Assembly (NCBI GenBank): GCA_018303445.1
Contig: JAGVYE010000002.1
Location: forward strand, 1-50,712
Origin: Candidatus Woesearchaeota archaeon
GTDB lineage: Archaea; Nanobdellota; Nanobdellia; Woesearchaeales; GW2011-AR9
Direction of reading: 5' to 3'
DNA: 50,712 nt
Part shown: piece after piece, positions 28,784 through 48,025 of the stretch
How positions within the stretch are numbered: the stretch's first letter is position 1
Layout: each line of letters opens with the position of its first letter
Notes under the pieces: generated by a model
The model's database searches: none
What the model was told of the DNA's origin: nothing
What the model saw: the letters and a program-made list of their open reading frames with translations, nothing else
Translations under genes and position numbers: made by a program

Positions 28784-29104
28784 TTGTTCTTAAGTTTAAT
28801 AATGTTAGGCTATCAAAAACTTGCTGCTTTCTGTGCACCTGTGCTTTTATCGGCCTGTGCCCATTTTCCGAGCCGTGAAGAATGTGTTCTTATCTATCAG
28901 CAAATTACGTTCGGCGTCATACAAGAAGAAATGCTAGGTTGCGATTATGATAATGATGGGTCACTTGATGCTATTGTCATAACAGCAGGAACTAATCACT
29001 CCTGTCCTGCGGGAATTATTAATCGCTATAAATCTGAGCCTGGATGCGAACTTTCTAAAGAAGCTTGGGAAAAAATACAAAAAGGATATGATTCTACGAG
29101 ATAA
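28784..29104 (+). CDS. Putative lipoprotein (paralog 1)
   Basis: LLSAC lipobox, CDYDNDGSLD and GCELSKEAWEKIQK. True start is probably ATG 28802. Confidence 0.65.
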   Translation: MFLSLIMLGYQKLAAFCAPVLLSACAHFPSREECVLIYQQITFGVIQEEMLGCDYDNDGSLDAIVITAGTNHSCPAGIINRYKSEPGCELSKEAWEKIQKGYDSTR

Positions 29105-29435
29105 TAGTTTTATGCCGCTTACCACAAAAATCACCGCCCTTTTCTTCCCCTTTGTTTTCTCTGGATGCGCTTCTCTCGTTGCCGCAGAATGTAAACCATT
29201 GTATAAAACAAATTTTGCAGGAATCACGGTAGGTGAAATTCAAGCTTGTGATCCTGATAGAAATGGAGAAGTTGATAAAATCATCGCCTCGGGAATATAT
29301 TTTTCTTTAGAATGCCCTCAAGGCGAATATCAACGAACAAATAAAAGATCTGGATGTACTCTTTCTGAAGAAATATGGGAAGAAGTGCAGAAGAAACATG
29401 GCGGAAAGAGGAATCTATATTGGGAAAAGCCTTGA
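29088..29435 (+). CDS. Putative lipoprotein (paralog 2)
   Basis: FSGC lipobox, CDPDRNGEVD and GCTLSEEIWEEVQK. Confidence 0.65.
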   Translation: MILRDNSFMPLTTKITALFFPFVFSGCASLVAAECKPLYKTNFAGITVGEIQACDPDRNGEVDKIIASGIYFSLECPQGEYQRTNKRSGCTLSEEIWEEVQKKHGGKRNLYWEKP

Positions 29436-29516: not shown

Positions 29517-30323
29517 ATGACTACAACGTGGGAAATTAGCCCAGATAGTAAAACTATACCTACACTTCATAATCCTTTGTTTATTGAAGGCCTCCCGGGA
29601 ATAGGCAATGTGGGAAAAATTGCCACGGATTTTCTTATTGAGGAATTTAAAGCGAAGAAAGGGTTTTCTTTTTTCTCGCATAAATTTCCTAATTCGGTAT
29701 TCGTAAATGAAGCTAATCTTGTGGAAATGCCCAAGATAGAGCTGTATTTCAAGAAGTTTAACGATGCCAAAAAACGAGACTTGCTCCTCCTAACAGGGGA
29801 CATCCAACCTATCGATGAAGAAAGCTGTTACACGTTCTGCGAAGAGATTATTAAAGTAGCCCAGAATTTTAAATGCCAGGAGATTGTTACTACTGGAGGA
29901 ATAGGATTGCAAAGTATTCCTGAAAAGCCGAGGGTATTTGTGACCAGTAATGATCCACAATTGCTGAAAGAATACACCAAGAAAGGACTTCCCGTCGAGG
30001 AAAAAATTTTTGGGGTGGTAGGGCCGATTATGGGTGTATCTGGAATCCTTTTGGGACTAGGAAAAATACGAGGAATGAAAGCTGTTTCGCTTCTGGCAGA
30101 AACGTTTGGTCATCCCCTGTTCTTAGGAATTAAAGGGGCAAAAGAATTGCTGCGAGTCTTGGAAGCAAAATTTTCTCTAGGAATTAACATTAATAAAATG
30201 AGCAAAGAGATTATTGAAGTGGAAAAAGAATTAATGAAAAAGACGAAAGAATGGGCAGAAGAAATGACCACCGCGCATGCTGGAGCCAAAGCCAAGAAGA
30301 AGGAAGCGAGTTATATTGGGTGA
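29517..30323 (+). CDS. PAC2 family protein (proteasome assembly chaperone-like)
   Basis: IEGLPGIGNVGKIA, LLTGDIQP, TTGG, GPIMGVSGILLG and LLAET motifs. Confidence 0.9.
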   Translation: MTTTWEISPDSKTIPTLHNPLFIEGLPGIGNVGKIATDFLIEEFKAKKGFSFFSHKFPNSVFVNEANLVEMPKIELYFKKFNDAKKRDLLLLTGDIQPIDEESCYTFCEEIIKVAQNFKCQEIVTTGGIGLQSIPEKPRVFVTSNDPQLLKEYTKKGLPVEEKIFGVVGPIMGVSGILLGLGKIRGMKAVSLLAETFGHPLFLGIKGAKELLRVLEAKFSLGININKMSKEIIEVEKELMKKTKEWAEEMTTAHAGAKAKKKEASYIG

Positions 30324-30702: not shown

Positions 30703-32685
30703 ATGTACAAAAAGAGGGAAAAGATAGAGGTATGTAGGTCTTTTTCTAACTCTTTCTTCCCTGAAAAACAAGGGCAAGTTACGATTTTCATTATTCTTGG
30801 ACTGATCCTTATTTTTGTAGTTGCGCTTATTTTCTTAACCAAGCAGGAAGTGGTGAAAATTAAGCCGGAAGAACTTATTCCTAGCGAAAAAGGGAAAATA
30901 GAGAATTTCGTCAGAGCCTGCATCAAGAGTGTCGGTGAGGAAGCCTTATTTCAACTGGGCTTGCAAGGCGGTTATATTGAAATGCCTTCTGAAATTAGCA
31001 ATGACGCCAGCCGCCATGTGCGTCTTTCCCCGTTCTTAGTTGTTCCCTATTGGGCTTATGGGGAAGTGAAGGATATGCCTTCGCGAGAAGAAATCAAGCA
31101 GCGTCTTGATGCGTATATGGAAGAACATCTTAGAGGCTGCCTCTTTGATTTAAACGCCTTTAAAGAAACGTACAATCTTATTGAAAAAACAGAGATCACG
31201 GCAAATACGGAAATACTGGACAACAAAGTTATTTTTTATGTCCATTGGGGCCTTGAAGTTCGTGACAAAAATGGGGAAAAAATCAGTGAAGTGATTAACC
31301 ACCAGGGAGAATCGCCGATTCAGCTTGGCAAGGTGTATGAAACGGCAAAAGCAGTTGTTGAACGGGAATTACTTACCTTAAAATTGGAAGATATAACACA
31401 GGATCTTATTGCTTTAGAACATCCTAATGTCCCCTTAACCGGTCTGGAAATGAGTTGCAAACGCAAAACATGGGATGTGAGCACCGTTAAAAAAACACTA
31501 AAGGATATGTTGCGTGTTAATATCAAAAAGCTGCGTGTGAAGGGAACAGAATTTGTGGAATTTCCGGAAGAGCTGCCATATTATCAGAATCATTACGTCT
31601 GGAATATGGGAGAAGGATTTGCCCAACAGGACATTAGTGTCGTGTTTAATTTTGAAAATACGTATCCGTTTACATTTCAAGTAACACCACTTACGGGAAC
31701 AAAAATGGCGAGCAATCAACAAGGAGGAACAGACTTAATTTCCTTTTTGTGCCTGCAAACCTGGAAATTCACTTATGATGTTATGTACCCTGTAGTCGTG
31801 AGAGTGAAAGATGAAAAGACAGGGTATAATTTCAATATGGCTTTTACCGTTCACTTGGTGAGAAATATCCCTAACCGAAAAGTGGCTATTGAAGCGAGAA
31901 ATCCAACTTCGCTTAACTTTCCTACCGATGAGGAATATTGCCGAGATGTGCGCATACCCATGACAGTAGTTACAAATTCCCAAGTTGTTAGCGACGAAGC
32001 AGGAGTTAATGATATTACGCCTCTCGAGGATGTAGAGATAAGTTTTTCTTGCTTGAAATATAGTTGTGAAATGGGCCAAACTGATTTTGATTTTGAAGAG
32101 AGCGGCTACCAAGCGGACTTAACAGTTAACTACCCTTACTGCGTGGGTGGGATTGTCCGGGGAGTAAAGGAAGGATATAAAGAAACATGGCAGAGAGTGG
32201 TAACAGAACATGATAAAATGGTGGAGCTGAATCTTGTTCCTCTTCATACTCTTCCTTTAAAAGCGCTAAAAGTTGTAAAACATGATCTAGAAGATTTGCA
32301 AGAAGAAAATCTGCAGACTGAAGAATTGGATGAAAATGAAGTGGCGCTGGTACGCTTAAAGCGTTTTGTCAATGGAACCCTTAACCATGAAATTCAGCAA
32401 GTGATAAGCGCTAAATTATCTTTGGAAACAGTTGACCGCTTAAAAGTTGAATTTCTGGCAGAAGCGGATTATCAATATGAAGTTGAGATTAACGTCTTTG
32501 ATGAAGAAAATCTCATTGGCGGATATAAAGCCAACTGGACCATTCCTTGGGATACGCTGCAAGAAGCAGAAGAGATTACATTCCATACCCTGACCCTGAA
32601 AAATCCACCGCAAGAAGATCTCTTTCAGCTCCTCCTTAACCTGGGGCCGGAAAGTGGAAAAGTTCCCTTGCCGGAAATTAAATGA
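30703..32685 (+). CDS. Class III signal peptide (pilin-like N-terminus) large extracellular protein
   Basis: EKQG/QVTIFIILGLILIFVVAL followed by FVRACI...LGLQGGY and several Cys pairs. First gene of a coupled operon. Confidence 0.8.
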   Translation: MYKKREKIEVCRSFSNSFFPEKQGQVTIFIILGLILIFVVALIFLTKQEVVKIKPEELIPSEKGKIENFVRACIKSVGEEALFQLGLQGGYIEMPSEISNDASRHVRLSPFLVVPYWAYGEVKDMPSREEIKQRLDAYMEEHLRGCLFDLNAFKETYNLIEKTEITANTEILDNKVIFYVHWGLEVRDKNGEKISEVINHQGESPIQLGKVYETAKAVVERELLTLKLEDITQDLIALEHPNVPLTGLEMSCKRKTWDVSTVKKTLKDMLRVNIKKLRVKGTEFVEFPEELPYYQNHYVWNMGEGFAQQDISVVFNFENTYPFTFQVTPLTGTKMASNQQGGTDLISFLCLQTWKFTYDVMYPVVVRVKDEKTGYNFNMAFTVHLVRNIPNRKVAIEARNPTSLNFPTDEEYCRDVRIPMTVVTNSQVVSDEAGVNDITPLEDVEISFSCLKYSCEMGQTDFDFEESGYQADLTVNYPYCVGGIVRGVKEGYKETWQRVVTEHDKMVELNLVPLHTLPLKALKVVKHDLEDLQEENLQTEELDENEVALVRLKRFVNGTLNHEIQQVISAKLSLETVDRLKVEFLAEADYQYEVEINVFDEENLIGGYKANWTIPWDTLQEAEEITFHTLTLKNPPQEDLFQLLLNLGPESGKVPLPEIK

Positions 32686-35600
32686 AAATGATACAGAAAA
32701 AAGAGATGATTGTACTGCTGATGATTTGGCTAGTTCTGAGCATGCCCATCACTCAAGCCTTCAGTATCTCAAATGTGAAAGCTGACGATGTGACACAACA
32801 TACAGCCAGCATTTCCTGGGAAACGGATGAGCCGGCAAATGGTTTTGTTGAGTATGGTGAAAATAAAGAGCAGTTGCAGAAAATAGGCGATGCTAAGGAA
32901 CTTTTAACTCATGCCTTTCCCCTTTCACAACTGAAGGAGAATACAACATATTATTTTAAAGTGGAAAGTAAGGAGGTTATAGATGATAACAATGGACAGT
33001 TATATTCTTTTGAAACTTTGCCGCCAGATAAAGAAGCTCCTCTTTTAGAAGTTACAATGCCCACAAGTGTGGCAGGAAATAAAGTTGATGTTACCGTAAA
33101 AACAGAAAGAGGAGCGACGATTACGGTTTTTGTGAATAATGTGAATATACGAAGTTCTCTTGCCAGGGAGGAAGTAACAACTATTTCAGCAGTTACGATT
33201 GACGGAAATAAGGAAAATACGATTACCGTTAAAGTTAAGGATAGTGCGGGAAATGAAGCCGCTTTTACAGGAAAAGTTTTTTCTGACAATGCGCCTCCCA
33301 AAATAACGTTACAAAAAATTCCAGAACTTATTGCCGAAAATAAGATCAGACTGCAAGGAACAGTTTCTGAAGATAGCAGCATGGAAGTTTTTGTGAATAA
33401 TCGGTCTGTAAAAACAGTACAAGGAATTTCTCTCAATGAAGAAATACGACTGCAGGAAGGGGCTAATAAGATTCGCGTTGTCGCGAAGGATAAAGCAGGC
33501 TGGGAAAGTGATGAAGAAATTACCGTTGATGCTGATACTGTTCCTCCAAAAGTAGATTTTGAATTTGAAGAAGGGTCTGAATATTATGAAGGAAGAGCGG
33601 ACACAGATATTAAAGGAGAGACAGAAGCAGGGGCAAAAGTATTTCTATACATTTATCAACGTCGGGGGGATCAGTTCCGCGCCGACTTTTCAAGACCAGT
33701 TGACATCGTAACTGCTGACAAAGAAGGAAAATTTACATTCAAAGACGCAAAGTTTCCTCCTTCTGTGTTTACAATCGGCAGAGGAAATGCAACGAGAGTG
33801 ACGCTTGTCCCGCGGCAAGTTCCTACGGGATTAGAGGAAGTGTTAATTTCACCATTAGACAAGTTGACGCAGGAACAGCGCAAGTCTTTTGATGTCATCA
33901 TCATCGCCGAGGATAAAACAGGAAAGAGCGGATTTAAGAAAAGAGTGGTGAATGTCAATTCCTGTTTTTCGTCGAGTTCTGATTTTAATATCATCCCCAT
34001 TCCCGAATTTCAAGCTCCGTTCCGCCTTAATCCCGATTTGATGGAGGAAGGAAGAGAAACTATCCAGGCCGTTTTCAATCTCACTTACCGAGGAAATGGC
34101 ATTCCCCGTTTGAATTCGAGAACTAATCTGCTGGAAAGCCCGTATCAAGTCCAGAGCGTAACCTTTGCCAAAGCCTGCACTCAGGAAACCACAGGCACAG
34201 ATGATTATTCCACTGGATGCCAGCTTCTTCCGTCAGGAGCACTCACATCGCAACCAAATCATGACAAAACGGCCTTCTATGTAACTTCTAATTTACGGCC
34301 GGCGAAAGAATTTCTGCAACGAAAGCCAGATCTTTGGGATGATTTCAAGAATCGTCAATTGAAAATGCCGCTCAAAGTTACAGTGCGCTATCGTGAACGG
34401 GATGCTAACGGCGGGTTTGGGCCAACCAAGACGCAAGTGCAATGCCAGGATTTAGGATATTTCGTTGATATTCCAGCGGAAGTGCAGAATTTTATTCCTG
34501 ACGCTCTGGCGGATACGTCCATCGCTATCTTGAATGAAACCATTAATGCCATTGAAGAAATCAAACCGTCTCTAGAAACGGCGATGATGGCCACGGGAAT
34601 TGGCTGTGTGGCTTCATTCCTTACAAAGTTAATCGCAAAATTTTACCGATTTTTTATCGCCCATTTTGAGCCTTGGTTAACAAAATTTAATCCCACAAAA
34701 AAAGAGGAAGGGTGTCCATTTATTGACGGGCAGCATAACTTGCTGCTTGATGATACGATTGAAAATTGGCAGAATATTGGAGTATTAGGCACTTCTGTTG
34801 ATGATAACATCAGGTTTTCGAAACGATGCCCGCAAACGGCAAAAGCGTGGGAAATGGAAGCCTTCTTAGACCAAGCTTACCGCTGGACATGCGATCGTTT
34901 CTTATGCCGAGCTGTACCAGCAAGATGGACGGAAAGTAAAGAAGAACCAGAAATTAAAGAAGTGTTGCAAAAACAATTGCAATGTTCCGCAACAAGTAAT
35001 GGGGTGTACTTGCAAAAAATCGAGAATTGCCACGAGCAATTAGAAAAAGATCCTAGTGCGAAGGAATTTCTGCGCATCCATAAACAGAGCGTAGTAGAAT
35101 GCTGGCGCGATGTGGAAGGAAATCTCTTTTTTGTTGATAACGCGAAACAAGAAAGCTTGAATGACCAAGGCATCTGGCGGCTTAGCCCTATTCCTACTTT
35201 TGGACAAGTGGGCCGTAAAGCACCTTCAGGAGATTTATTAGTCTATAAGCCCGAAGGTTCTCAAACTTATATGACCAGCGTCGACAAAACGTGTAAACAA
35301 GTGTGCGAAAGTAAGAAAGGATATGAAGCCGTCAGTGATGGTTTTTTCGTCAATGGCGTGAATAGCTGTTATAAGCAAGAAGAAAACGGATTGAAAAGTC
35401 AAACGGATATTCTCCGAGGAGAGAAAATAGGAGCCGGATATACAAACGATTGTTTTATTGACCGAGCTAATCCCAGCGCGGGGTTGTATGAATGTGTATG
35501 TCAGACGAAAGTGAGTCAGGCAAACGTACCAAAGACTAAACCTACTTCGCGCGAAGCGAAGAAGAAAGAAGTAGTGAATAATGTTGAAGTTGTGGAAGAA

Positions 35601-38000
35601 TGGAGTTATCACCAAGATCGTCTCTATAAGGAAACAAATGGAGTGTATGGAACATTATATTCAAAATTGAGGTATTATGGCGGGCGAGATTTAAGCGGCG
35701 CCTTTGGATTAGATTATGGATTAGATAATTTTCGAGATAAGAATTTCACGACCACACAAGTCAATCCGAGCACAGATTGGTTTGGCACGTTTCAAGCAGT
35801 TTGCCTGCCGGGAATTAATGCGCGGTTAACGATGCTGCAAAGTGTCCTGCAGGGCTTGCAAGGATGTATTGTGGAAGCAAAGTATACGGGGCTGAGGGAT
35901 GCGGGAACGTGTAAAACTATTTTCACACAATATTTCTGTGGCTTGATCTATAAAGGAATTGCTCTTCTTGCCAGCAGTTGTTCGCCTTTATCATTTAAAG
36001 ACCTGGGAAAAGGCTTTGAAGATCCAACGGAAGGAGGAGTTCAAGCCTTCTTTGATTCGGGATTTAAGGCCATTCCGGAAGCGATTGAAAGTTCAATTTC
36101 GGAAGTGCAGTCCGATTATGGCAATGCTAAATTTAACCAATTCTTTTCCACGGGAGTGCAAGGATTTGCCGAATCCATTTGCTTAGCAGCCTTTGGTTAT
36201 GATTTCCCATTTGGCATGGATTTCATTCTTGATGCCGCGTATTCATTTCCCACAGCAACGAATGTCTTTTTCCCTGTAGCGAATAGAGAACTGGCAACAT
36301 TTGACCCTGTAAAAGGAACAGCGGTGTATAATTACGAATTAGCAGGCGCGATTCTGCCGGGATGTAACTTTCGCGGATATAAAACAGAATTAAAGTGTGT
36401 AACAATCGAAGATGCAGGGAATCCTGGCCTTTCCTGTTCCGATCAGCGTTGCGATTGCATGCAGGCAACAGGATTACGACCAGAATCAGCAGGAGCACGA
36501 ACACATAAAATAGATGGAGGAACGAGTTTCAGCGGAGTACAGAGAGGAAAATTGTTCGACCTTCCTTTAGTCTCTCCACAAAAAGTCAGCAGTGAGTTCC
36601 GCTATGATCACGTCGTTTTAGATATCATCTTAGATCAAAATGAAGATCCAACAAGATGTTTTGATGAAGGATATAGAACGCCAAATGGAGGAAGATTTTA
36701 TTTCCCCATTAGTGATGTTGGGCCGGAGAGAGTCGGCACTTGTCAAGTTGATGTTCTCACAGGACGGTTTAAATGCCCGGAAATTGCTTCGCTGTTTGGA
36801 GGAGGGCAAACCTATTTTGAACATCCTTTTATCACTTGTTTTGATAAACTGAATAATCAATATGTTGATTGCGAGACGCCAAATCTGTTTATTGTTGGCC
36901 AAGGAAATATTCAAGTGAAACCGCATCTGAATATTGGAAAAGGCGCTTATTGTTTAGAAGTAGCTGATAATCGAGGGTTGCTTACACCACTCACAATTCC
37001 CATTCCAGAAGGCACGCAGGGAACGTACGCCCCACCACTCGATCTTGGTCCTGTATCCCAAGAAATGATTATAGGGGGAACGAGAGCCACAATTGTTCCG
37101 GCGCATGATAGTGATAATGGATGTGGAGGAGAAGGGAGACGAGATTTGCACGTCATTGATTATCCAGGACCGGCACAAGTAATACAAGAGAAATCATTTA
37201 CATTTAAGTACCTGCCACAAGGAGGAGATCAGTATACTATTACTCTTCCTCCTGATGTTGATGTTGTTAAACCAAATCCTCATCATCCTACAGCACAATA
37301 TGAAATAGATGCAACGACGAGAGAATTAACACTGGCAGGAGTAAAAGTGCTCAGTGCTGAGGACATTAACAACGCCGTCTTTCAGTATCAAGGATTTACC
37401 TTTGACAAAGTTCTGGGACATCCTACACCTGCACCAGGGAAAAATGGACAGTGCACATATAGAATTTCAGCAGCACGAACAGGAACAGCGGCAAAGATTG
37501 GATCGCTTTCCATTACCGCGAAACTCTTGCAAGCGCCAACAAGCGGCAGCTGCTTCCAGGCCACACAGCTTGTTGCACCCAGTCAATTAGGAAGGAATTT
37601 AGTTTCTCTGCCCATTCGCGTGCAAGCAGAGACGGTAGAACAAACACAAGCGACAGGGATACATGAAGATTTCACACGGGGAGATTATGACCGTGTTATT
37701 GGCAAAGCTCAGCCTATTGTACAGCGAAAGGAGAGTAATGTAGAACATGTCCGTGGATTATACTATTGGATTGCCAGTTTAATTATGAAAGGGAAAGGAG
37801 TTGAACCGTATAAAGGAGAAATAAAAGGATTATTAGAATTGTTCTTTGACCGAAATTATAATGACAAGGAAATTTTAGATAGTTATGATACGGTGATAAC
37901 AAATGATCCGCAATTTCAGAAAATATGCACCTATCTGTGTGAAGTAGATACAGAGATAGATAATAAATATGCAACAAAGTGTCAAAATGGCTGCACATAA
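32682..38000 (+). CDS. Giant secreted protein: FN3 + Ig-like repeats + Cys-rich/helical core
   Basis: Sec signal, FN3 (ISWETDEPA..VEYG..LKENTTYYF) and Ig repeats (D.APP, EGANKI..A.DKAG). Many Cys and internal hydrophobic/amphipathic helices. ATGA overlap with the upstream gene. Confidence 0.85.
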   Translation: MKMIQKKEMIVLLMIWLVLSMPITQAFSISNVKADDVTQHTASISWETDEPANGFVEYGENKEQLQKIGDAKELLTHAFPLSQLKENTTYYFKVESKEVIDDNNGQLYSFETLPPDKEAPLLEVTMPTSVAGNKVDVTVKTERGATITVFVNNVNIRSSLAREEVTTISAVTIDGNKENTITVKVKDSAGNEAAFTGKVFSDNAPPKITLQKIPELIAENKIRLQGTVSEDSSMEVFVNNRSVKTVQGISLNEEIRLQEGANKIRVVAKDKAGWESDEEITVDADTVPPKVDFEFEEGSEYYEGRADTDIKGETEAGAKVFLYIYQRRGDQFRADFSRPVDIVTADKEGKFTFKDAKFPPSVFTIGRGNATRVTLVPRQVPTGLEEVLISPLDKLTQEQRKSFDVIIIAEDKTGKSGFKKRVVNVNSCFSSSSDFNIIPIPEFQAPFRLNPDLMEEGRETIQAVFNLTYRGNGIPRLNSRTNLLESPYQVQSVTFAKACTQETTGTDDYSTGCQLLPSGALTSQPNHDKTAFYVTSNLRPAKEFLQRKPDLWDDFKNRQLKMPLKVTVRYRERDANGGFGPTKTQVQCQDLGYFVDIPAEVQNFIPDALADTSIAILNETINAIEEIKPSLETAMMATGIGCVASFLTKLIAKFYRFFIAHFEPWLTKFNPTKKEEGCPFIDGQHNLLLDDTIENWQNIGVLGTSVDDNIRFSKRCPQTAKAWEMEAFLDQAYRWTCDRFLCRAVPARWTESKEEPEIKEVLQKQLQCSATSNGVYLQKIENCHEQLEKDPSAKEFLRIHKQSVVECWRDVEGNLFFVDNAKQESLNDQGIWRLSPIPTFGQVGRKAPSGDLLVYKPEGSQTYMTSVDKTCKQVCESKKGYEAVSDGFFVNGVNSCYKQEENGLKSQTDILRGEKIGAGYTNDCFIDRANPSAGLYECVCQTKVSQANVPKTKPTSREAKKKEVVNNVEVVEEWSYHQDRLYKETNGVYGTLYSKLRYYGGRDLSGAFGLDYGLDNFRDKNFTTTQVNPSTDWFGTFQAVCLPGINARLTMLQSVLQGLQGCIVEAKYTGLRDAGTCKTIFTQYFCGLIYKGIALLASSCSPLSFKDLGKGFEDPTEGGVQAFFDSGFKAIPEAIESSISEVQSDYGNAKFNQFFSTGVQGFAESICLAAFGYDFPFGMDFILDAAYSFPTATNVFFPVANRELATFDPVKGTAVYNYELAGAILPGCNFRGYKTELKCVTIEDAGNPGLSCSDQRCDCMQATGLRPESAGARTHKIDGGTSFSGVQRGKLFDLPLVSPQKVSSEFRYDHVVLDIILDQNEDPTRCFDEGYRTPNGGRFYFPISDVGPERVGTCQVDVLTGRFKCPEIASLFGGGQTYFEHPFITCFDKLNNQYVDCETPNLFIVGQGNIQVKPHLNIGKGAYCLEVADNRGLLTPLTIPIPEGTQGTYAPPLDLGPVSQEMIIGGTRATIVPAHDSDNGCGGEGRRDLHVIDYPGPAQVIQEKSFTFKYLPQGGDQYTITLPPDVDVVKPNPHHPTAQYEIDATTRELTLAGVKVLSAEDINNAVFQYQGFTFDKVLGHPTPAPGKNGQCTYRISAARTGTAAKIGSLSITAKLLQAPTSGSCFQATQLVAPSQLGRNLVSLPIRVQAETVEQTQATGIHEDFTRGDYDRVIGKAQPIVQRKESNVEHVRGLYYWIASLIMKGKGVEPYKGEIKGLLELFFDRNYNDKEILDSYDTVITNDPQFQKICTYLCEVDTEIDNKYATKCQNGCT

Positions 38001-38550
38001 AAAAGCAAGTTTGGGAGTAGAAGTGCTGTTGATGTTAATCCTCGTAGTTATGATAAGTGCAGTGATACTGTTCCTTATTAAATCTGGAATGATTAGTGTG
38101 AAAGCTAGTGGGAGTGAAGAGCCTATTCTGAATACGGAGTTTATACCCTTAGAGAGAGAAGGGGTTTTAACTCTTACTTCATTTTCTTTCTGCCGTTATG
38201 TGGACAGTAATTATCGATGCTTGCAACCTTTGGAGCGCTTTCCTCTCGGCGCTGATGTCTACTTTATTTTTACTGTAGAAAGCAGTACAGAAAATGAAAA
38301 AGTTATCCTCATTGAGAATTATAAACTTAAAAATCCACAAGGAATAGTTATTCTTGATGTTGACGCACGAAATGATTTCTATGTGGAAAGTACCAGCGAG
38401 AAAAAAAATGAAGAAATTACATTTAAAGATTATTTTATTACTGATCTTTCATTAGAGGAAGGTGTTTATACTCTAGAATTACATCTAGAAAATCCCATTT
38501 TAGCGAAAAATGTTAAAGCGACAAAAAAAGTAGAGTTGTTTAGAAAATGA
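37969..38550 (+). CDS. Class III signal peptide (pilin-like) protein with Ig-like C-terminal domain
   Basis: HKKA/SLGVEVLLMLILVVMIS and EGVYTLEL beta-sandwich motif. True start is probably ATG 37987. Confidence 0.75.
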   Translation: MQQSVKMAAHKKASLGVEVLLMLILVVMISAVILFLIKSGMISVKASGSEEPILNTEFIPLEREGVLTLTSFSFCRYVDSNYRCLQPLERFPLGADVYFIFTVESSTENEKVILIENYKLKNPQGIVILDVDARNDFYVESTSEKKNEEITFKDYFITDLSLEEGVYTLELHLENPILAKNVKATKKVELFRK

Positions 38551-40388
38551 AAAAATCCATACTCGTCTTATTCCTAGGAATTTTTCTTATATTGAGCTTA
38601 GTTTCCGCCCTTGATTCTAACTTGGATGGAACTGGAAACGATGATGATCCGTACCGTTGGAAAAATGGAATTCTTGGAGTTAATGAGAACTGTGAGGTAC
38701 GGATTTTTCAGGAAATGCAATGGGTGGAAAGATTACAAGCTTCACCTATTCTCGTTATTGGTTCAGGAAATGTTGATGATCCTTTCACATTAAGTGATAC
38801 AAATAAAGGATTGGTATGCGAGCCGATGTCAGTAGCACGAGAGAGAATCTACGTTGTTTTCCTTGATCTAAATACCAAAAAATGGACTCGAAGTTCTCGA
38901 GTTGGCGCTGGCCAGCCCTCTTCACCAAGTAGTGTACAGGTTGTTCCTAAGGATGTTTGTAGGGACACGCCTTGTCTCCAATTAAATGATGTGTGGCTCA
39001 GGATAAGTACATTTCTCACCAAAGTTGATTCCTCCAAGAAAAGGCAAGTGTGGGATACGTCATTAGGGTGGGTTGATCCATCAAAACTTAAAGAAATAGC
39101 AGCGTCAGTTATAGTGCCGCCTGTAACACCGCCAACTCCAAAACCACCTGTTGGGGTAAGTAAAAAAATAATTGTGGACACTGCTTTGAATGAATTCAGA
39201 AGCTGGAATCAAGGAACTCTCAGTGAAACAGACACAGGAGCGCAAGTTCTTCTTAATAAGTATGCTACTTCTATAAATGCTGCTTCTTGGAATTCAGGAA
39301 CTCCTTGGTCTGCTATCTTTATCTCCTGGGTTATGCAGGAAGCGGGCATTACTGATTTTCCCAGTAATGGTTACCATGCGGGATATTTCAAATCCATTCG
39401 TGAGAGTCCTGGCATATGTACAACGCATCGCATGAGCGAATTTAATTCCATCCAAGCAGGAGATATTCTCTGTGCATGCAGGGGAAATGGTTGTCTTATT
39501 ACTTACGATGATGCAACTTCTCCCAAGGAAAGTCATTGTGATATTATAACTGAAATTTCAGACGATTCTCTTGCCATCGTTGGTGGAAATGTTCATTCGG
39601 CTTCCTGTGGAGCGAATCCTAATGTTGGCTGTACAGTGAACAACCGACCCATAAGTAAATCGAACATTATTAGCAATGCACGTTATTTTGGTTTTATCAG
39701 TTGTGGAGAAACAACAGGAGAACCTTCAGAATTTACAGATTATGATTTTCATCAGACAAAAAAATATGTAGACACGACGCATCTGCAAAAAGTGGAAGAT
39801 AAAGCAGCAGAAGCAGGCATGGATGCTTGTTATCCTTTAGTTACGATTCTTTTTGAGTCCCAAGGAAATCCTGAAGTAATCGGCGTAGATGCAAATGTTC
39901 GTACTTGTAATACCATCTCACGACGGACATTTATTATTAATACTCTTCCTTCAGAATGTGGTAGTTATGCCACGTCGGATGGAAGTACAAGACTGCGTGA
40001 GGATTGTGAAAATGGAGTTAACAATGCATGTGTAAATTCTATAGGTGATAGATCTTATCAATTACCCATACCAACACAGAATGATTTTTGTTCTTCATCA
40101 TATGATCAACGATACACGTATGGTATTGGTTTAGGACAAACTACTCCCGAGGAAGGTTCTACTTCCATTACTATTAAAGGAAAAACATTTACACATTGCG
40201 GTCTCTTTGATGTCGATACCAATATTGAAGCGACAATTAACGAATTGCAAAAGAAAAAAGAAGCAGCAGAAGCTAGTTGTAGAAATAATAAGACCTGTGT
40301 AGTTCGTGAAACATTTAAAAGATATCGTGGGATTCTGGATACAGAAAGAGTTCAAGCTTTTAATAGCTGCCAAACAAAAAAGAAATAA
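38547..40388 (+). CDS. Secreted putative peptidoglycan hydrolase: DUF2272/CHAP-like domain + lytic transglycosylase (SLT)-like domain
   Basis: Signal peptide and Pro linker. PWSAIFISWVMQEAG...H..Y...AGDILC..R...HCDI...VGGNV matches DUF2272. TILFESQGNP...GIGLGQ...LFDVDTNIE...Y.G matches SLT motifs I-III. Confidence 0.75.
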   Translation: MKKSILVLFLGIFLILSLVSALDSNLDGTGNDDDPYRWKNGILGVNENCEVRIFQEMQWVERLQASPILVIGSGNVDDPFTLSDTNKGLVCEPMSVARERIYVVFLDLNTKKWTRSSRVGAGQPSSPSSVQVVPKDVCRDTPCLQLNDVWLRISTFLTKVDSSKKRQVWDTSLGWVDPSKLKEIAASVIVPPVTPPTPKPPVGVSKKIIVDTALNEFRSWNQGTLSETDTGAQVLLNKYATSINAASWNSGTPWSAIFISWVMQEAGITDFPSNGYHAGYFKSIRESPGICTTHRMSEFNSIQAGDILCACRGNGCLITYDDATSPKESHCDIITEISDDSLAIVGGNVHSASCGANPNVGCTVNNRPISKSNIISNARYFGFISCGETTGEPSEFTDYDFHQTKKYVDTTHLQKVEDKAAEAGMDACYPLVTILFESQGNPEVIGVDANVRTCNTISRRTFIINTLPSECGSYATSDGSTRLREDCENGVNNACVNSIGDRSYQLPIPTQNDFCSSSYDQRYTYGIGLGQTTPEEGSTSITIKGKTFTHCGLFDVDTNIEATINELQKKKEAAEASCRNNKTCVVRETFKRYRGILDTERVQAFNSCQTKKK

Positions 40389-40403: not shown

Positions 40404-40874
40404 CTACTGTTTATTCTGCTTCACTAATTCTTCAATCATAACTAAGACTTTTTGCGGATGGGTGATATTTCGTATTTCAAAGGTCTCTCCTCCAGTTTTA
40501 ATAAAAACAGTGCCATAATTAAGCGGCCGCTGGACTCTGGACTGATGGATATTTAAATCTGGAACATACGCTAGGGGCTGAAAGTAGACGTTCTTTTTCT
40601 GATGTTTAATCAGCCCATGAATAATGGAGAATTTTGTGTTGTAGATTTTATAACGAGTAGCTAAAATAGAGCTTTCTGCTGAAATGAGAGAAAGCAAACC
40701 AAGAGCTCCGATGAGGTAACTGTATTGCTGCCGAATAGGAACGGCATGAAGGTAAACGGCAACTCCAATTCCCAAAAGCAGAAAACTACAGAAGTATTCT
40801 ACCAAAAAGGCTCTTCTGGTTTGGCGTAATGAGAGCAGGAGGTGATCCTCTTTTTTCTCTTCTTCATGAGCCAT
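40404..40874 (-). CDS. Membrane protein with bacterial PH (bPH_2) domain
   Basis: Two N-terminal TM helices, then YKIYN...GLI....QSRVQR.LNYGTVFIKTGG...I..P. Confidence 0.8.
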   Translation of the reverse strand: MAHEEEKKEDHLLLSLRQTRRAFLVEYFCSFLLLGIGVAVYLHAVPIRQQYSYLIGALGLLSLISAESSILATRYKIYNTKFSIIHGLIKHQKKNVYFQPLAYVPDLNIHQSRVQRPLNYGTVFIKTGGETFEIRNITHPQKVLVMIEELVKQNKQ

Positions 40875-43840: not shown

Positions 43841-45733
43841 TCACTCAAAATACATTTTCATAACTCCCTGCACTTTTTCTACCCTGATAATGAGGTCTTT
43901 CAAATGATTCAAGTCTCGTGGAATAACGGAAAATTGACATTGGGCATGAACAGTGTCAAGCAACTTCGCTTTAGCTTCTTTTACTTCAAATCCAGTTTTA
44001 GCAATGGTATGCAATAAGTCTGCTAATAATCCGCTGCGCTCTTCAGCGTTAACATAAAAGCGGATTTTTTGGTTAAATGTTTTCTTCCAGTACACGGGAA
44101 CCCAGCGATGTTCCTGCTGCAAGGCATAGCGACAGTCATGACGATGGGTGGAAATTATTTTCTTTTTGGTAATGATGCCGATAATTTCCTGGTCAGGCAA
44201 AGGGTTGCAACATTTTGCCAGCAGGCAGATAGCGTGAGGAAATTCTTCGGAATCTACCAAAAGGCCTTGTTCTTCTTGAATTTCTGGTTTGAAGGTGCGA
44301 TAATGGAGAGGAGGGAGCTTTTCATAAACGCGCAAGGATTTGCGAATTTTTTGTTTGGATTTAGGAGAAGTTACGATTTTAAGCCAACTGCGGCGAGGAC
44401 GCTGATTTTTATTGGTAATAACTTCCACGACATCGCCAAACTTAACAAAATGTTTTAAAGGAACAAATTTTCCATTAACTCTTCCCGCTACCGCCGTGCT
44501 GCCAATCTCTTCATGGACACTATAAGCAAAATCTAAGAGAGTAGCGCCTGCAGGAAGTTCTTTAATATCCCCTTTAGGGGTGTAACAATAAATTTTATCA
44601 CCAAAGATGTCAATCTTGAGAGTTTCCAGGAATTCTTTATTCTCAGCATCATTATGAAGTTCAAGGATGCCTTTAAGCCAGGCAATCTTTTTGTCAAGAA
44701 TTTCTCCGGAAGCCATTTCTTTATACCGCCAATGGGCAGCAAACCCTTCATCGGCAAAGCGGTCCATTTCTTCGGTTCTAATCTGGACTTCGACAATGCG
44801 CCCCTGAGGAAAACGAAGACCAGTGTGAATAGAACGATAAAAGTTTGGTTTAGGGTTGGCAATGTAATCTTTTAACCTTCCTTCGAGAGGCTCAAAATTT
44901 TCATGAAGAAGACCTAACACTATGTAACAATCTTTTTCCTCTGGCACAATGATGCGAATGCCGAGAATGTCAAAAATGTCACGAAGATTTCTCCCTTTTT
45001 GTATTTTTTTATAAATGCTGTAAACATTTTTTTTACGCCCTTTTATTTTAGTAATGGCAACTTTCCCCGCACAGAGCTGAGTGATGTCTTGAATAACAAG
45101 GTTAATGCCCTTTTCAAAGGCTTCGGCTGATTCGGCAAGATAACCTTCTATCTCTTCGTATTTCCTGGGATTGATAACTTTAAACGCCGTATCTTCTAAT
45201 AAAATGCGGATTTTGTCCATACCGAGACGATAGGCGAGGGGAGCGTAAATTTCCAAAACTTCTTGGGAGATGCGCTGTTGAATTTCTGAGGGAAAAACGT
45301 GGATAGTCCGCAAGTTGTCCAATTTTGCGGCTAATTTTATAAACAGAACTCTGATATCCTGAAGAGAAGTAAGGATCATTCGCTTCATGGCCTCAGCTTC
45401 AACAGAAGGAGATTTTGATTTTATGGATTGAAGAGATTTCATTCCATCTAAGAGAGAAAAGATACTTTTATCGAACTGGGAAGAGAATTCTTTAAGAGAG
45501 ACATGCTCTAAAACTCCATTAAGAATTCCCGTCATAATGATATCTGGATCAATATTGTTTTCAACGAGAATGATGGCCACGCGAAGATTATGGTCATAAT
45601 AAGAGTCTCCGGCAAGACGTTTTTTTTCTGAAAGAATCTTTTTAGCAAAAGCCAGTGCTTTTTGAAGGCGGAGAAGAATCTTTTCATCATAGCCTTGCTG
45701 CAGGCATAAAGCAAGAAATTGATCTTCAGTCAT
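43841..45733 (-). CDS. Long RelA/SpoT homolog (HD-SYNTH-TGS-ZFD-ACT), hydrolase motif degenerate
   Basis: R.AGDSYYDH, IKLAAKLDNLRT, IYAPLAYRLG, GRKKNVYSIYKK, DILGIRI, RLKDYIANPKPN.YRSIHT, EVQIRT and AAHWRYK. TGS (TPKG, DFAYSVH, VNGK.VPL), AKCCNP..HR.DC and ACT (RSGLLADL) are also present. Confidence 0.93.
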   Translation of the reverse strand: MTEDQFLALCLQQGYDEKILLRLQKALAFAKKILSEKKRLAGDSYYDHNLRVAIILVENNIDPDIIMTGILNGVLEHVSLKEFSSQFDKSIFSLLDGMKSLQSIKSKSPSVEAEAMKRMILTSLQDIRVLFIKLAAKLDNLRTIHVFPSEIQQRISQEVLEIYAPLAYRLGMDKIRILLEDTAFKVINPRKYEEIEGYLAESAEAFEKGINLVIQDITQLCAGKVAITKIKGRKKNVYSIYKKIQKGRNLRDIFDILGIRIIVPEEKDCYIVLGLLHENFEPLEGRLKDYIANPKPNFYRSIHTGLRFPQGRIVEVQIRTEEMDRFADEGFAAHWRYKEMASGEILDKKIAWLKGILELHNDAENKEFLETLKIDIFGDKIYCYTPKGDIKELPAGATLLDFAYSVHEEIGSTAVAGRVNGKFVPLKHFVKFGDVVEVITNKNQRPRRSWLKIVTSPKSKQKIRKSLRVYEKLPPLHYRTFKPEIQEEQGLLVDSEEFPHAICLLAKCCNPLPDQEIIGIITKKKIISTHRHDCRYALQQEHRWVPVYWKKTFNQKIRFYVNAEERSGLLADLLHTIAKTGFEVKEAKAKLLDTVHAQCQFSVIPRDLNHLKDLIIRVEKVQGVMKMYFE

Positions 45734-45855: not shown

Positions 45856-47964
45856 ATGAACATTAGATGGCTGGTCTTGCTTTCAATCATTATACTGTCA
45901 GTTTCAGGCTGTAAACAATTTAGTCTTGATGATCTTAGTGATAAAGATCTTAAAAGAATTTCAGAAAATGCAGTTATCTGCAATAAGCCTTATCTTAGAG
46001 TTGGTCTGGAATGTTGTTTAGATAAAAATGGCGATAAGATTTGTGATGATGACAAACAAATTCCCGGAGATGTTGATGATGTTCCAAAAACAAACCATAG
46101 TACTGATAAACCCCCCGAAACACCGTCAGAAAACAAAACCAATCCAGAACGAGATAATCCCCCTGTAGACAAGAAACCTCGACCGCCACGTGAAGATCCA
46201 GTTAAAGTTCCTAATCCGCCGTCACAAGGTTCAGCAGCCGGAATTTCTAATCCTAACCTGATTATTAAACTGCCGGCTTTAAGCCTGCCACTAGCAGGAA
46301 AAACTTTTACTGACCCTGCTTTTGGAACAAAGCTTAGAAGATTAACTGATGCCGTGAATGGAAATCGCGATCGGCACGTTTATTCTCAATTGCAGGCTTT
46401 TAATAAAGATAATTCACGGATATTGATGGATAATTCTCAAAATTACTTGGTAAGAGAAGTTGATTCACTAAAAATAAGTTATGCTTTTGATACTTTAATT
46501 TATGCGCCGCGCTGGAATCCCCTCAATAAGGAAGAAATAATTTACTTTACCGACTTAGCTACGGAACCAACAGAAGTTGAACTGGAGAAGATCAATGTCT
46601 TTACTGGCATAAAAACTAAATATAATTTTCCCATAAATACCTATCGCTGGGTAAGTCCGGGAAGGGCTATTTCTTATGAAGAAATTTCGCGGGATGGCCG
46701 TTGGTTGACTTTGTTTGTTCAAAAAAGAAGCAACGATCACATGGTCTTTGTGCTGTTTGATTTAATAAATAATAAAGTTGAAAGAGAATTAGATTTGGCT
46801 GGAAGATGCAGTGATATCAACCCTAACTGGGTAGCGCCTTCGCCATTAAAAGGAGATATCGTCATTCAATGGAATCCTGATGGAGAGGGAGCCTGCAATG
46901 GTGTGGAAGTGTATGACCGAACTACCGGACAGTATAAAGGACACGTTGGATCGCATCGCGGACACAGCGATATGGGGATTGATGAAAATAATAATGAAAT
47001 ATATGTAACTTATGGCTTTCAAAACAGCTTATTTATTACTGTAACCAAATTTCCCGGTTCTGCTAACTTTAAAAACAGTTACGACAAAATTATTCTTGAT
47101 GTGGGATGGGGGCATTTCTCCCACCTTTCCTGTCAGGGGCCGAAAGGAGTCTGCGTAGTTACCGCCGATACAAATACTGACGCTCCCGTTGCTGGCGGTG
47201 AACCATTACACAATGAAATTTATTTGGTTTATACTTCAGGAAGAGCTGAAGAAGGCAACAATGCTGGCGCCAAAATAAGGCGATTGGCTCACCATAGATC
47301 GTCAAACTGCGACTATTACCATGAGCCACAGGCCAGCATCTCAGCTGACGGCAGCTATATCATTTTTGCTTCCGACGGCGGAAATTGCAATTCAGGAGCT
47401 GACAGTTACCTTATTGACTTGCGCGGCTCTGATCTTTCTGCGCCGCCTTCTTCTGGAGGGCCAACTGGCGGAATAGTAATTGAACCACCGAATGATGATT
47501 CTGATGAAGAAGAAACCGAACCAGAAAATCAAAACCAGTTGCCTGAAGAAAATCTTGGCGTGAATGGATTGCCAGCACAAACTTATAATTTAGATAACGA
47601 TGATGTTTTTACTTTAGGGATCGCTGAAGGACAATGGTATGCGCCGCCAGTATCGGTTGGTAAGGATTTTGTAAGATTATTAGTTACTAATGAAGTTGGA
47701 ATGATAAGTTGTGAGGCTACAGATTTCACCAATATACGGCTGTTTTATTCACCCAGCAGATCAAACCAATACACAAAAGTTGCTAATTCGCAAATCTTGG
47801 AACATGACGGCGGCGGCTGTAATAAATGGAATCAAATGTATGCAGTATCGCTGCAAGGATCAAATGATATTGTAGCCTGTGTATCACAAGAGGATGATTC
47901 GCAGAATTATTGCACTGAGCCGGTACAGATTACTACTAATCCTAAGGGGGTGGAGTGGGGTTAA
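45856..47964 (+). CDS. Lipoprotein with beta-propeller (TolB/oligogalacturonate lyase-like) domain
   Basis: VSGC lipobox, CNKPY..CCLDKNGDKICD module, Pro linker, then FTDPAFGTKLRRLTD, YSQLQAFN and RRLAHHRS...EPQASISADGSYIIFASD. Confidence 0.75.
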   Translation: MNIRWLVLLSIIILSVSGCKQFSLDDLSDKDLKRISENAVICNKPYLRVGLECCLDKNGDKICDDDKQIPGDVDDVPKTNHSTDKPPETPSENKTNPERDNPPVDKKPRPPREDPVKVPNPPSQGSAAGISNPNLIIKLPALSLPLAGKTFTDPAFGTKLRRLTDAVNGNRDRHVYSQLQAFNKDNSRILMDNSQNYLVREVDSLKISYAFDTLIYAPRWNPLNKEEIIYFTDLATEPTEVELEKINVFTGIKTKYNFPINTYRWVSPGRAISYEEISRDGRWLTLFVQKRSNDHMVFVLFDLINNKVERELDLAGRCSDINPNWVAPSPLKGDIVIQWNPDGEGACNGVEVYDRTTGQYKGHVGSHRGHSDMGIDENNNEIYVTYGFQNSLFITVTKFPGSANFKNSYDKIILDVGWGHFSHLSCQGPKGVCVVTADTNTDAPVAGGEPLHNEIYLVYTSGRAEEGNNAGAKIRRLAHHRSSNCDYYHEPQASISADGSYIIFASDGGNCNSGADSYLIDLRGSDLSAPPSSGGPTGGIVIEPPNDDSDEEETEPENQNQLPEENLGVNGLPAQTYNLDNDDVFTLGIAEGQWYAPPVSVGKDFVRLLVTNEVGMISCEATDFTNIRLFYSPSRSNQYTKVANSQILEHDGGGCNKWNQMYAVSLQGSNDIVACVSQEDDSQNYCTEPVQITTNPKGVEWG

Positions 47965-48025
47965 TTTAGATAGATATCCCACTTTCATAATCTATATAAA
48001 AAAAAAGAAACTTTCTAAGTTTTCT

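Follow-up and report, generated by a model that had tools for sequence, protein, structure and literature searches.

The window analysed here, 50,712 nucleotides (nt) of contig JAGVYE010000002.1 from a Candidatus Woesearchaeota archaeon (draft genome labelled G000; 1.22 Mb, 54 contigs, 95% complete), carries at positions 30703-40388 of its forward strand a block of four co-oriented, overlapping genes, which we call A, GIANT, C and slot 4 (Table 1). Open reading frame (ORF) mapping and reading of the sequence indicate that A and C encode predicted surface proteins with pilin-type N-termini, GIANT a very large Cys-rich exported protein and slot 4 a putative wall-cutting enzyme, P0004. The original prediction made from this DNA had described overlapping stop/start junctions between the four genes, and the ORFs and junctions lie where it placed them: an ATGA at 32682-32685 joins A to GIANT, a second one at 38547-38550 joins C to the slot-4 gene, and the ATG of C at 37987 is found 11 nt 5' of the GIANT TAA (37998-38000). 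Intrinsic terminators are not in excess within the block (9 found against 10.3 expected), and the candidate archaeal TATA box TTTATAAA would give rise to a leaderless or short-leader mRNA. As judged from its gene order and distribution, A-GIANT-C is a lineage-specific cell-surface cassette of a family of Woesearchaeota (DPANN), predicted to be translationally coupled with slot 4.

Conservation of the block was assessed in 60 relatives, 36 from the same family and 24 from other families of the order. Gene A was found in 36/36 and 23/24 of these genomes, respectively, GIANT in 34/36 and 19/24, and C in 34/36 genomes of the family and, as a weak match, in one of the 24 others, while P0004 gave partial matches only, in 6/36 family members, and none in the other families (0/24). 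The A-GIANT pair is thereby represented in the majority of the families that make up the order. It had been set beforehand as a test that the core should be kept while the terminal hydrolase is swapped, which is what these counts show; together with synteny across the family, they support the view that the genes form a conserved unit. A profile of C identified a single copy in 100 of the 112 other family species; among the high-quality genomes, G000 counted, C was found in 65 of 67. The core of GIANT was detected in 13 of 151 genomes sampled across the class, G000 included; nine others belong to the same order, and the three matches from other orders of the class cover a short helical segment only. 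Mapping the ORFs of 40 fetched loci gave the gene order PAC2, A, GIANT, C, slot 4 for the family, with the PAC2-family gene 5' of A in most family loci. In a genome of the same genus (G001), A is 74%, GIANT ~65% and C 68% identical to the proteins in the window, and BLASTP aligned P0004 to the corresponding enzyme over the first ~200 residues only, that is, over the N-module and up to its Pro-rich linker.

The gene 3' of C is on the same strand in 28/28 loci, at a distance of -26 to +38 nt, and it differs in nearly every genome, its products being overall mostly unrelated to one another. Among 27 loci informative for a Pfam count (L052, cut by a contig end, was left out), there are 17 at which either the first or the second gene following C encodes murein-specific domains. 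Domains found in the slot occur in shuffled combinations of SLT, Amidase_2, M23, M74, M15/M15_4, GH25 and DUF2272, often together with GDSL/SGNH, Metallophos or DUF218. Only weak Hydrolase_2 matches were obtained for two slots, five have only GDSL/SGNH, DUF218 or Metallophos and three have no Pfam match; a search of NCBIfam with five slot-4 proteins having no clear Pfam murein domain returned nothing informative. The slot-4 protein of G007 has 3116 residues and combines SLT (9.3e-30) with M15 and Amidase_2. At two loci an enolase gene stands between C and the hydrolase-type gene (GDSL at L031 of G009, Peptidase_M15_4 at L032 of G005). The slot is flanked at many loci by the same genes, C upstream and bPH, Fpg and metallophosphoesterase genes downstream (the bPH_2 gene is also 3' of slot 4 at L014-L017, L021, L023, L030 and L034), and it therefore behaves as a cassette within a fixed frame. 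A linker motif, [ILVM][DNEQ]x[VIL]Wxx[ILVM], was considered as a shared docking tag of slot-4 proteins and rejected, as it is enriched but not universal: it occurs in 13 of 28 slot-4 proteins and in 4 of the 505 remaining ORFs, including two displaced hydrolase genes.

These counts also bear on the possibility that the block is an artefact of chance or annotation, in which unrelated ORFs happen to be neighbours and the hydrolase gene was recently inserted by horizontal transfer. P0004 does have few full-length relatives (three), and the gene differs even within the genus. Nevertheless, the slot is filled in 28/28 loci by a gene on the same strand that overlaps or nearly touches its neighbour, the core is retained in about 100 species, and base composition shows no break across the block (GC 0.39-0.44). 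All of this argues against an artefact, and the synteny counts already contradict this explanation, which we regard as hardly credible.

Table 1 Features of the four-gene block and its surroundings in the window.
Feature	Coordinates	Strand	Description
Small ORF pair	28784..29435	+	Two tandem overlapping paralogous ORFs, 106 and 115 residues
PAC2-family gene	29517..30323	+	Pfam 2.5e-38; conserved upstream neighbour, outside cassette
TTTATAAA	30673..30680	+	Candidate archaeal TATA box, 23-30 nt upstream of first ATG (sequence read)
A (P0001)	30703..32685	+	660-residue ORF
GIANT (P0002)	32682..38000	+	1772-residue ORF
C (P0003)	37987..38550 (ORF opens 37969)	+	187 residues from M7, 193 residues for whole ORF
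Slot-4 gene (P0004)	38547..40388	+	613-residue ORF; predicted secreted two-domain cell-wall hydrolase
P0004 N-module	38607..39101	+	Residues 21-185; ends in C..C.LNDVW..I linker motif (residues 138-158) and Pro-rich linker
P0004 DUF2272 (PF10030)	39114..39716	+	Residues ~190-390; papain-like NlpC/P60-CHAP cluster
P0004 C-module	39729..40385	+	Residues 395-613; divergent SLT/lytic-transglycosylase-like, with Cys-rich insertion
bPH_2 gene	40404..40874	-	Pfam 1.1e-06; conserved downstream flank framing variable slot
Long RelA/SpoT homolog	43841..45733	-	Full-length
702-residue ORF and Rad50/SMC-like ATPase gene	45856..50434	+	ORF overlaps start of ATPase gene (851 residues)

The enzyme encoded in the window, P0004, has a Sec-type N-terminus followed by three modules, each of which recurs independently elsewhere (810 matches at E <= 1e-3), full-length relatives being rare as stated above. 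Sequence comparison of the whole protein with the PDB gave nothing usable. Its central domain matches DUF2272 with 64.8 bits (gathering cut-off 27, E 1.2e-17, residues 248-352), a family which has been placed in the papain-like NlpC/P60-CHAP-amidase group with Ser replacing the catalytic Cys (PMC10318531). Among 136 aligned sequences, three of which are copies of the query, W254-S255, H330 and N348 are conserved (S255 98%, H330 99%, N348 96%) and all are present in P0004, so that we infer by position an intact S255-H330-N348 catalytic triad. In the C-module, the residues E437-S438, G528-L-G-Q531 and Y593..G595 are invariant in 15 homologs, four of which weakly match Pfam SLT (best 7e-4), and alignment by hhalign to five Pfam-defined SLT domains of other slot-4 proteins superposes ES on ES (probability 70.1%, E 4e-5). 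We take ES, GLMQ-like and AYNxG-like motifs to be those of SLT/family 1 lytic transglycosylases. No match to PF01464 was found anywhere in the G000 genome. Of the two murein-hydrolase-type domains that had been predicted in this protein, the first corresponds to DUF2272, and the second, which has no Pfam match of its own and is backed by the hhalign alignment and the ES, GLGQ and Y..G motifs, is better described as SLT-like than as a proven member of the SLT family.

Both A and C have a short basic leader, Gly or Ala at position -1 and directly thereafter a hydrophobic stretch, in keeping with class III signals, where this stretch has ~20 residues. In A the N-terminus is of an EppA-type, class III-like form (EKQG/QVTIFIILG, the slash marking the putative cleavage site), and 36 of 39 aligned orthologs carry the motif [KRQSH][GA]-Q-[VILM]-[STAQ]-x-[FYM], the remaining three being S-Q-V-T, i.e. 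with Ser at -1 (two), and a mis-called start (one). Gln25 and eight Cys residues are invariant in this alignment. The hydrophobic segment of A covers residues 21-53, and an AlphaFold2 model built from the 39 sequences (predicted local distance difference test score, pLDDT, 86.1) shows a hydrophobic helix at 24-52, an alpha/beta domain at ~62-300 and beta-sandwich domains up to residue 660. The protein matched nothing in Pfam or NCBIfam, and a Foldseek search with the model yielded nothing more specific than generic matches to adhesins with tandem Ig-like domains and to pilins of Gram-positive bacteria (TMq <= 0.13). With 660 residues and several domains, A departs from the single-domain build of a small pilin, in which an N-terminal helix is followed by one Ig-like beta-sandwich.

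Five or six A-family paralogs with the same type of N-terminus are encoded in G000, and three of them adjoin another large secreted protein. These three loci (L060-L062; G000:C1:4169-12057, C32:13991-18894 and C8:6100-9158) encode A paralogs of 891, 354 and 258 residues with the N-terminus K-G/A-Q-I/L-T/S-x-F, next to secreted proteins of 1709, 1280 and 760 residues; the 1280-residue partner has a C-terminal DUF1615 (27 bits) and a weak PG_binding_1 match. Judging by this arrangement, A-type proteins may commonly partner or anchor large surface proteins in the lineage, and the pairing of a pilin-signal protein with a giant surface protein seems itself to be general. The partners were also considered as GIANT paralogs, and this was rejected, none showing more than weak Ig-domain similarity. 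In other families of the order (L036-L047), A-GIANT is flanked by multi-pass-looking membrane proteins of 250-300 residues with no Pfam match (f13 upstream, f16 downstream), often with a second A paralog (713-756 residues) and secreted proteins of 515-1090 residues upstream of the pair.

Gene C encodes a protein of 187-193 residues with the N-terminus MAAHKKA/SLGVE, a hydrophobic helix (segment 11-47) and a single Ig-like beta-sandwich (56-193), which in the ESM Atlas structure resembles Ig-like clusters of the DUF4625/Big_13/PKD type (TM-score 0.56-0.59, residues 63-193); its own Atlas cluster is from Nanobdellota/Woesearchaeota. It is therefore pilin-like, its size and predicted architecture being those of type IV pilins in archaea. 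Of 28 orthologs, 21 show the N-terminal pattern of basic residues, Gly/Ala, Glu or Gln at +5 and a hydrophobic run, so that the class III (prepilin peptidase-type) signals which had been proposed for two genes of the block hold family-wide for both. The genome also encodes candidate machinery for proteins with such signals, namely one A24 prepilin peptidase (PF01478, 53.9 bits, an ORF of 283-292 residues on G000:C38) and one T2SSE-type ATPase away from the cassette (55.4 bits, an ORF of 762-777 residues). At the A24 locus (G000:C38:3261-5809) the peptidase gene is flanked by two small ORFs of 177 and 198 residues with canonical KKG plus hydrophobic pilin-type N-termini, probably the ordinary pilins of this organism.

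GIANT is a single-copy, highly conserved protein with one N-terminal hydrophobic segment, predicted to be a Sec-type signal. It can be divided into an FN3/Ig-like array (~28-400), a Cys-rich core (~400-1430, with conservation highest at 1000-1400) and a family-specific C-terminal region (1435-1772); none of its 42 Cys residues lies within residues 1-400. The FN3/Ig-type Pfam matches, which are weak, span residues 29-286 and include Glucodextran_B (5e-09, 220-285), Pur_ac_phosph_N (2.4e-06, 38-112) and fn3 (0.0028), and were accompanied in Pfam/NCBIfam by weak matches of Ca_tandemer and barrel_OmpL47 type and by an eRF1_1 match at chance level (E 0.047). The earlier description of a 1772-residue FN3/Ig/Cys-rich exported protein is thus accurate as far as these predictions go. 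A sequence search of the PDB and the ESM Atlas gave nothing usable for GIANT, and an AlphaFold2 model of the core (residues 385-1440, 38 sequences, pLDDT 74.3) had no Foldseek match at E <= 1e-3 in the PDB or in BFVD. Prediction of a complex between GIANT 1435-1772 and the globular part of C, both of which are family-specific, returned a score of 0.00, that is, 'no answer', which carries no weight either way.

The strongest argument for a common function of the core and the slot comes from GIANT itself. Six GIANT orthologs of the family have C-terminal extensions of at least 180 residues, and these include Peptidase_M74 (4.7e-14, G015), DUF2272 (2.9e-20, G031) and a bacterial SH3_3 domain (1.8e-06, G014); the tail of the G012 ortholog is an unnamed domain which is also found in four slot-4 proteins. 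The M74, DUF2272 and SH3 fusions indicate that GIANT and the enzymes may act at the same place and on the same substrate, and provide a sequence-level link between the GIANT core and peptidoglycan. That substrate is presumably not the cell's own, since G000 shows no sign of murein synthesis: a search for penicillin-binding protein transpeptidases in its genome found none, and its single Mur-ligase-fold match has counterparts in murein-free control archaea.

An alternative possibility is that slot 4 provides a diffusible weapon, a secreted bacteriolysin used in competition, and that A-GIANT-C is a structural surface layer or sheath which merely shares its promoter. Secreted archaeal peptidoglycan hydrolases that kill bacteria are documented (PMC12352652), and all slot-4 proteins have N-termini which by eye are Sec-type and not pilin-type. 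The conservation of GIANT as a single copy would also suit a structural protein, and SlaB is among the generic Foldseek matches of the A model (a beta-sandwich, E 2.7e-5, TMq 0.13). However, the M74, DUF2272 and SH3b fusions and the tail shared by G012 and the slot-4 proteins are hard to explain if the two parts are unrelated, the lack of the cassette in the 95%-complete G006 is unexpected for an essential envelope layer, and 42 Cys residues are unusual for S-layer proteins. Nor does the cassette correspond to an archaeal S-layer pair of the SlaA/SlaB type, given that the beta-sandwich match between A and SlaB is a generic one and that the cassette was not found in G006. We consider this explanation improbable.

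Slot-4 enzymes could instead be used for scavenging, digesting free murein or necromass for its amino sugars and peptides while A-GIANT-C serves as a scaffold for binding and retaining polymers. The esterase and phosphoesterase domains of the slot (GDSL/SGNH, Metallophos, DUF218) are suited to a general breakdown of wall polymers, groundwater and soil metagenomes are listed as sources of this DNA, and G000 has a gene of the Glucosamine_iso family (9.7e-44). This family also covers 6-phosphogluconolactonase, which makes the gene an ambiguous marker of amino-sugar catabolism, and as it is the single match of its kind, amino-sugar catabolism was discarded as a means to discriminate between feeding and attack. 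On the other hand, the enzyme is tightly coupled to adhesin-like proteins that would be anchored, and enzyme and SH3b domains are fused to a giant bound to the cell, which favours an activity located on the surface of the archaeon itself, and domain swapping at the level of species looks more like adaptation to partners than like bulk digestion. Neither point is decisive, and we regard scavenging as unlikely, if less so than a diffusible weapon.

The association of conserved surface proteins with a swapped wall-cutter suggests a surface tool aimed at bacteria, and we think it probable that the cassette is a surface module directed at bacterial cell walls. According to the mechanism that we propose, A and C would be cleaved by the single A24 prepilin peptidase of the genome and would stay fixed through their hydrophobic N-terminal helices, whether inserted in the membrane or packed into a short stalk resembling a type IV pilus. 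In this way the two would hold GIANT at the cell surface. GIANT could then bind the bacterial envelope, and the co-expressed hydrolase could open the murein locally, in G000 through an amidase/endopeptidase-like DUF2272 domain with a Ser-His-Asn triad and an SLT-like cleaver of glycan strands. The archaeon may thereby attach to a bacterial partner or prey, gain access to it or lyse it, and swapping of the enzyme domains would follow differences in wall chemistry among the bacteria that each species encounters.

Several observations, however, weigh against a module directed at bacterial walls. Elsewhere in the order, outside the family, the gene after A-GIANT encodes a membrane protein, and neither a C ortholog nor an adjacent hydrolase was seen at L036-L047. 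Within the family, the 0.7-Mb, 95%-complete genome G006 yielded no GIANT, C or SLT and only a marginal match to A (8.2e-5), and seemingly does without the cassette. Ten of the 27 informative slots have no clear murein-specific domain, and SLT genes are present in 24/36 genomes of the family and in 18/24 of other families, many of them away from the cassette. For P0004 itself, the C-module has no Pfam SLT match at E <= 0.1 and no match in a profile search of PDB sequences, and the hhalign probability for an SLT assignment is just 70%. The pLDDT of the GIANT core model is moderate, so that the lack of fold matches is weak evidence for a new fold, and the T2SSF platform (PF00482) was not found in the 95%-complete G000. 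Lastly, signal cleavage, pilus mounting, physical association of the proteins and a living bacterial target are steps which we infer. The pilus-associated, wall-breaching machine that had originally been envisaged accordingly stands in part: the conserved unit, the hydrolase swap, the class III motifs, the papain-like and SLT-like domains and the GIANT fusions agree with it, and pilus mounting and an attack on living bacteria belong to its conjectural part.

A stronger version of the proposal is that A-GIANT-C forms a so far undescribed archaeal surface organelle, a type IV pilus-like stalk or tip complex with a disulfide-rich head of new fold, which would dock on bacterial envelopes and position exchangeable murein hydrolases. 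We put this forward tentatively, as a doubtful extension of the wall-directed module. If it is true, an apparatus that breaches bacteria on contact would be known from archaea for the first time, and an entire family of Woesearchaeota would have bacteria as its hosts or prey.

Other features of the window lie outside the cassette. The two small paralogous ORFs upstream, located between a radical-SAM gene and PAC2, have no Pfam match and are also present in a same-genus genome (L053). Downstream, the long RelA/SpoT homolog has the HD_4 (7.9e-38), RelA_SpoT (7.4e-33), TGS (5.3e-18) and ACT (9.4e-08) domains of Pfam, and a gene of this kind is found near the cassette at seven other loci; long enzymes of this family are unusual in archaea. 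In the overlapping pair at the end of the window, the 702-residue ORF has a weak PD40 match only, and the ATPase gene an AAA_23 match (1.5e-15) and an SbcC Walker B motif.

On the question of which partners Woesearchaeota have, and how such tiny archaea reach them, only murein hydrolase genes have so far been reported. The cassette gives this question a defined, testable object, in which three conserved surface proteins of no known fold, found in about 100 species of a single family, are combined with a variable enzyme slot and natural fusions of GIANT to peptidoglycan-related domains. The wall type that each species meets could be read from its genome through the content of the slot, new bacteriolytic activities might be found among the slot-4 enzymes, and GIANT is a structural target. 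Our search of the full-text literature found no published account of the A-GIANT-C core, its variable slot or the GIANT fusions; the families may be listed in supplementary tables, and Module 98 of Castelle 2021, which comprises 51 lineage-specific families, may contain A, GIANT or C.

Among known systems, the tip adhesin PilY1/PilC of bacterial type IV pili, a large non-pilin found in the tip complex with minor pilins, is an analogy for how GIANT may work, in that genes for pilin-type proteins stand together with one for a large non-pilin that is exported through Sec and would be presented for adhesion; unlike a homologue, GIANT shows no sequence or fold similarity to it in Pfam/NCBIfam or in the Foldseek search of the PDB (none at E <= 1e-3, residues 385-1440). 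The Epd pilins of Methanococcus maripaludis, which are cleaved by EppA, have listed processing sites of the KG/Q-V type (EpdA-E: KGQV, KGQI, KGQL, RAQI; PMC4371748, Table 1), and the A family shares with them K/R-G/A followed by Q-V/I/L, with Gln at +1. C is also similar in its basic leader with Gly/Ala, in carrying Glu/Gln at +5 and in its Ig-like head, whose size is that of a pilin. In contrast to these pilins, A has 660 residues, several extra domains and Phe instead of Glu at +5, and the cassette has neither a pilus ATPase nor a platform in cis and would depend on one A24 peptidase only (the 283-292-residue ORF).

Murein lytic transglycosylases of Woesearchaeota and Pacearchaeota have already been published and read as a sign of bacterial partners (PMC8204110, PMC9723730, PMC10936187), including the GH23 genes of Vigneron et al. 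2022 (PMC9723730) and fam00969 of Castelle 2021, large murein lytic transglycosylase proteins of up to 3,000 residues with an SLT domain (PMC8204110). Like slot-4 proteins, fam00969 comprises secreted murein-cleaving proteins in wall-less DPANN, and the 3116-residue protein of G007 fits its description. The descriptions in these papers, however, concern the enzyme family only and not an A-GIANT-C core, a variable slot or GIANT fusions, and P0004 differs from fam00969 by its small size (613 residues) and by an SLT-like domain below Pfam detection. The bacteria-killing hydrolases of Strock et al. 2025 (PMC12352652) are likewise archaeal murein hydrolases of horizontally acquired appearance aimed at bacteria, but are reported there as stand-alone secreted enzymes, and the main text uses none of the terms 'operon', 'pili' or 'gene neighbo'. 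Finally, the Tae/Tge effectors of type VI secretion systems, such as Tse1, and the tail-associated lysins of phages also join a conserved delivery or structural part to rapidly exchanged murein-hydrolase modules, and Tse1 (4F0V) has been discussed under DUF2272 in the NlpC/P60-CHAP-amidase group (PMC10318531). Unlike these systems, the cassette includes no type VI secretion, phage-tail or immunity genes and its enzymes carry Sec signals; its producer would need no immunity, because it has no murein of its own.

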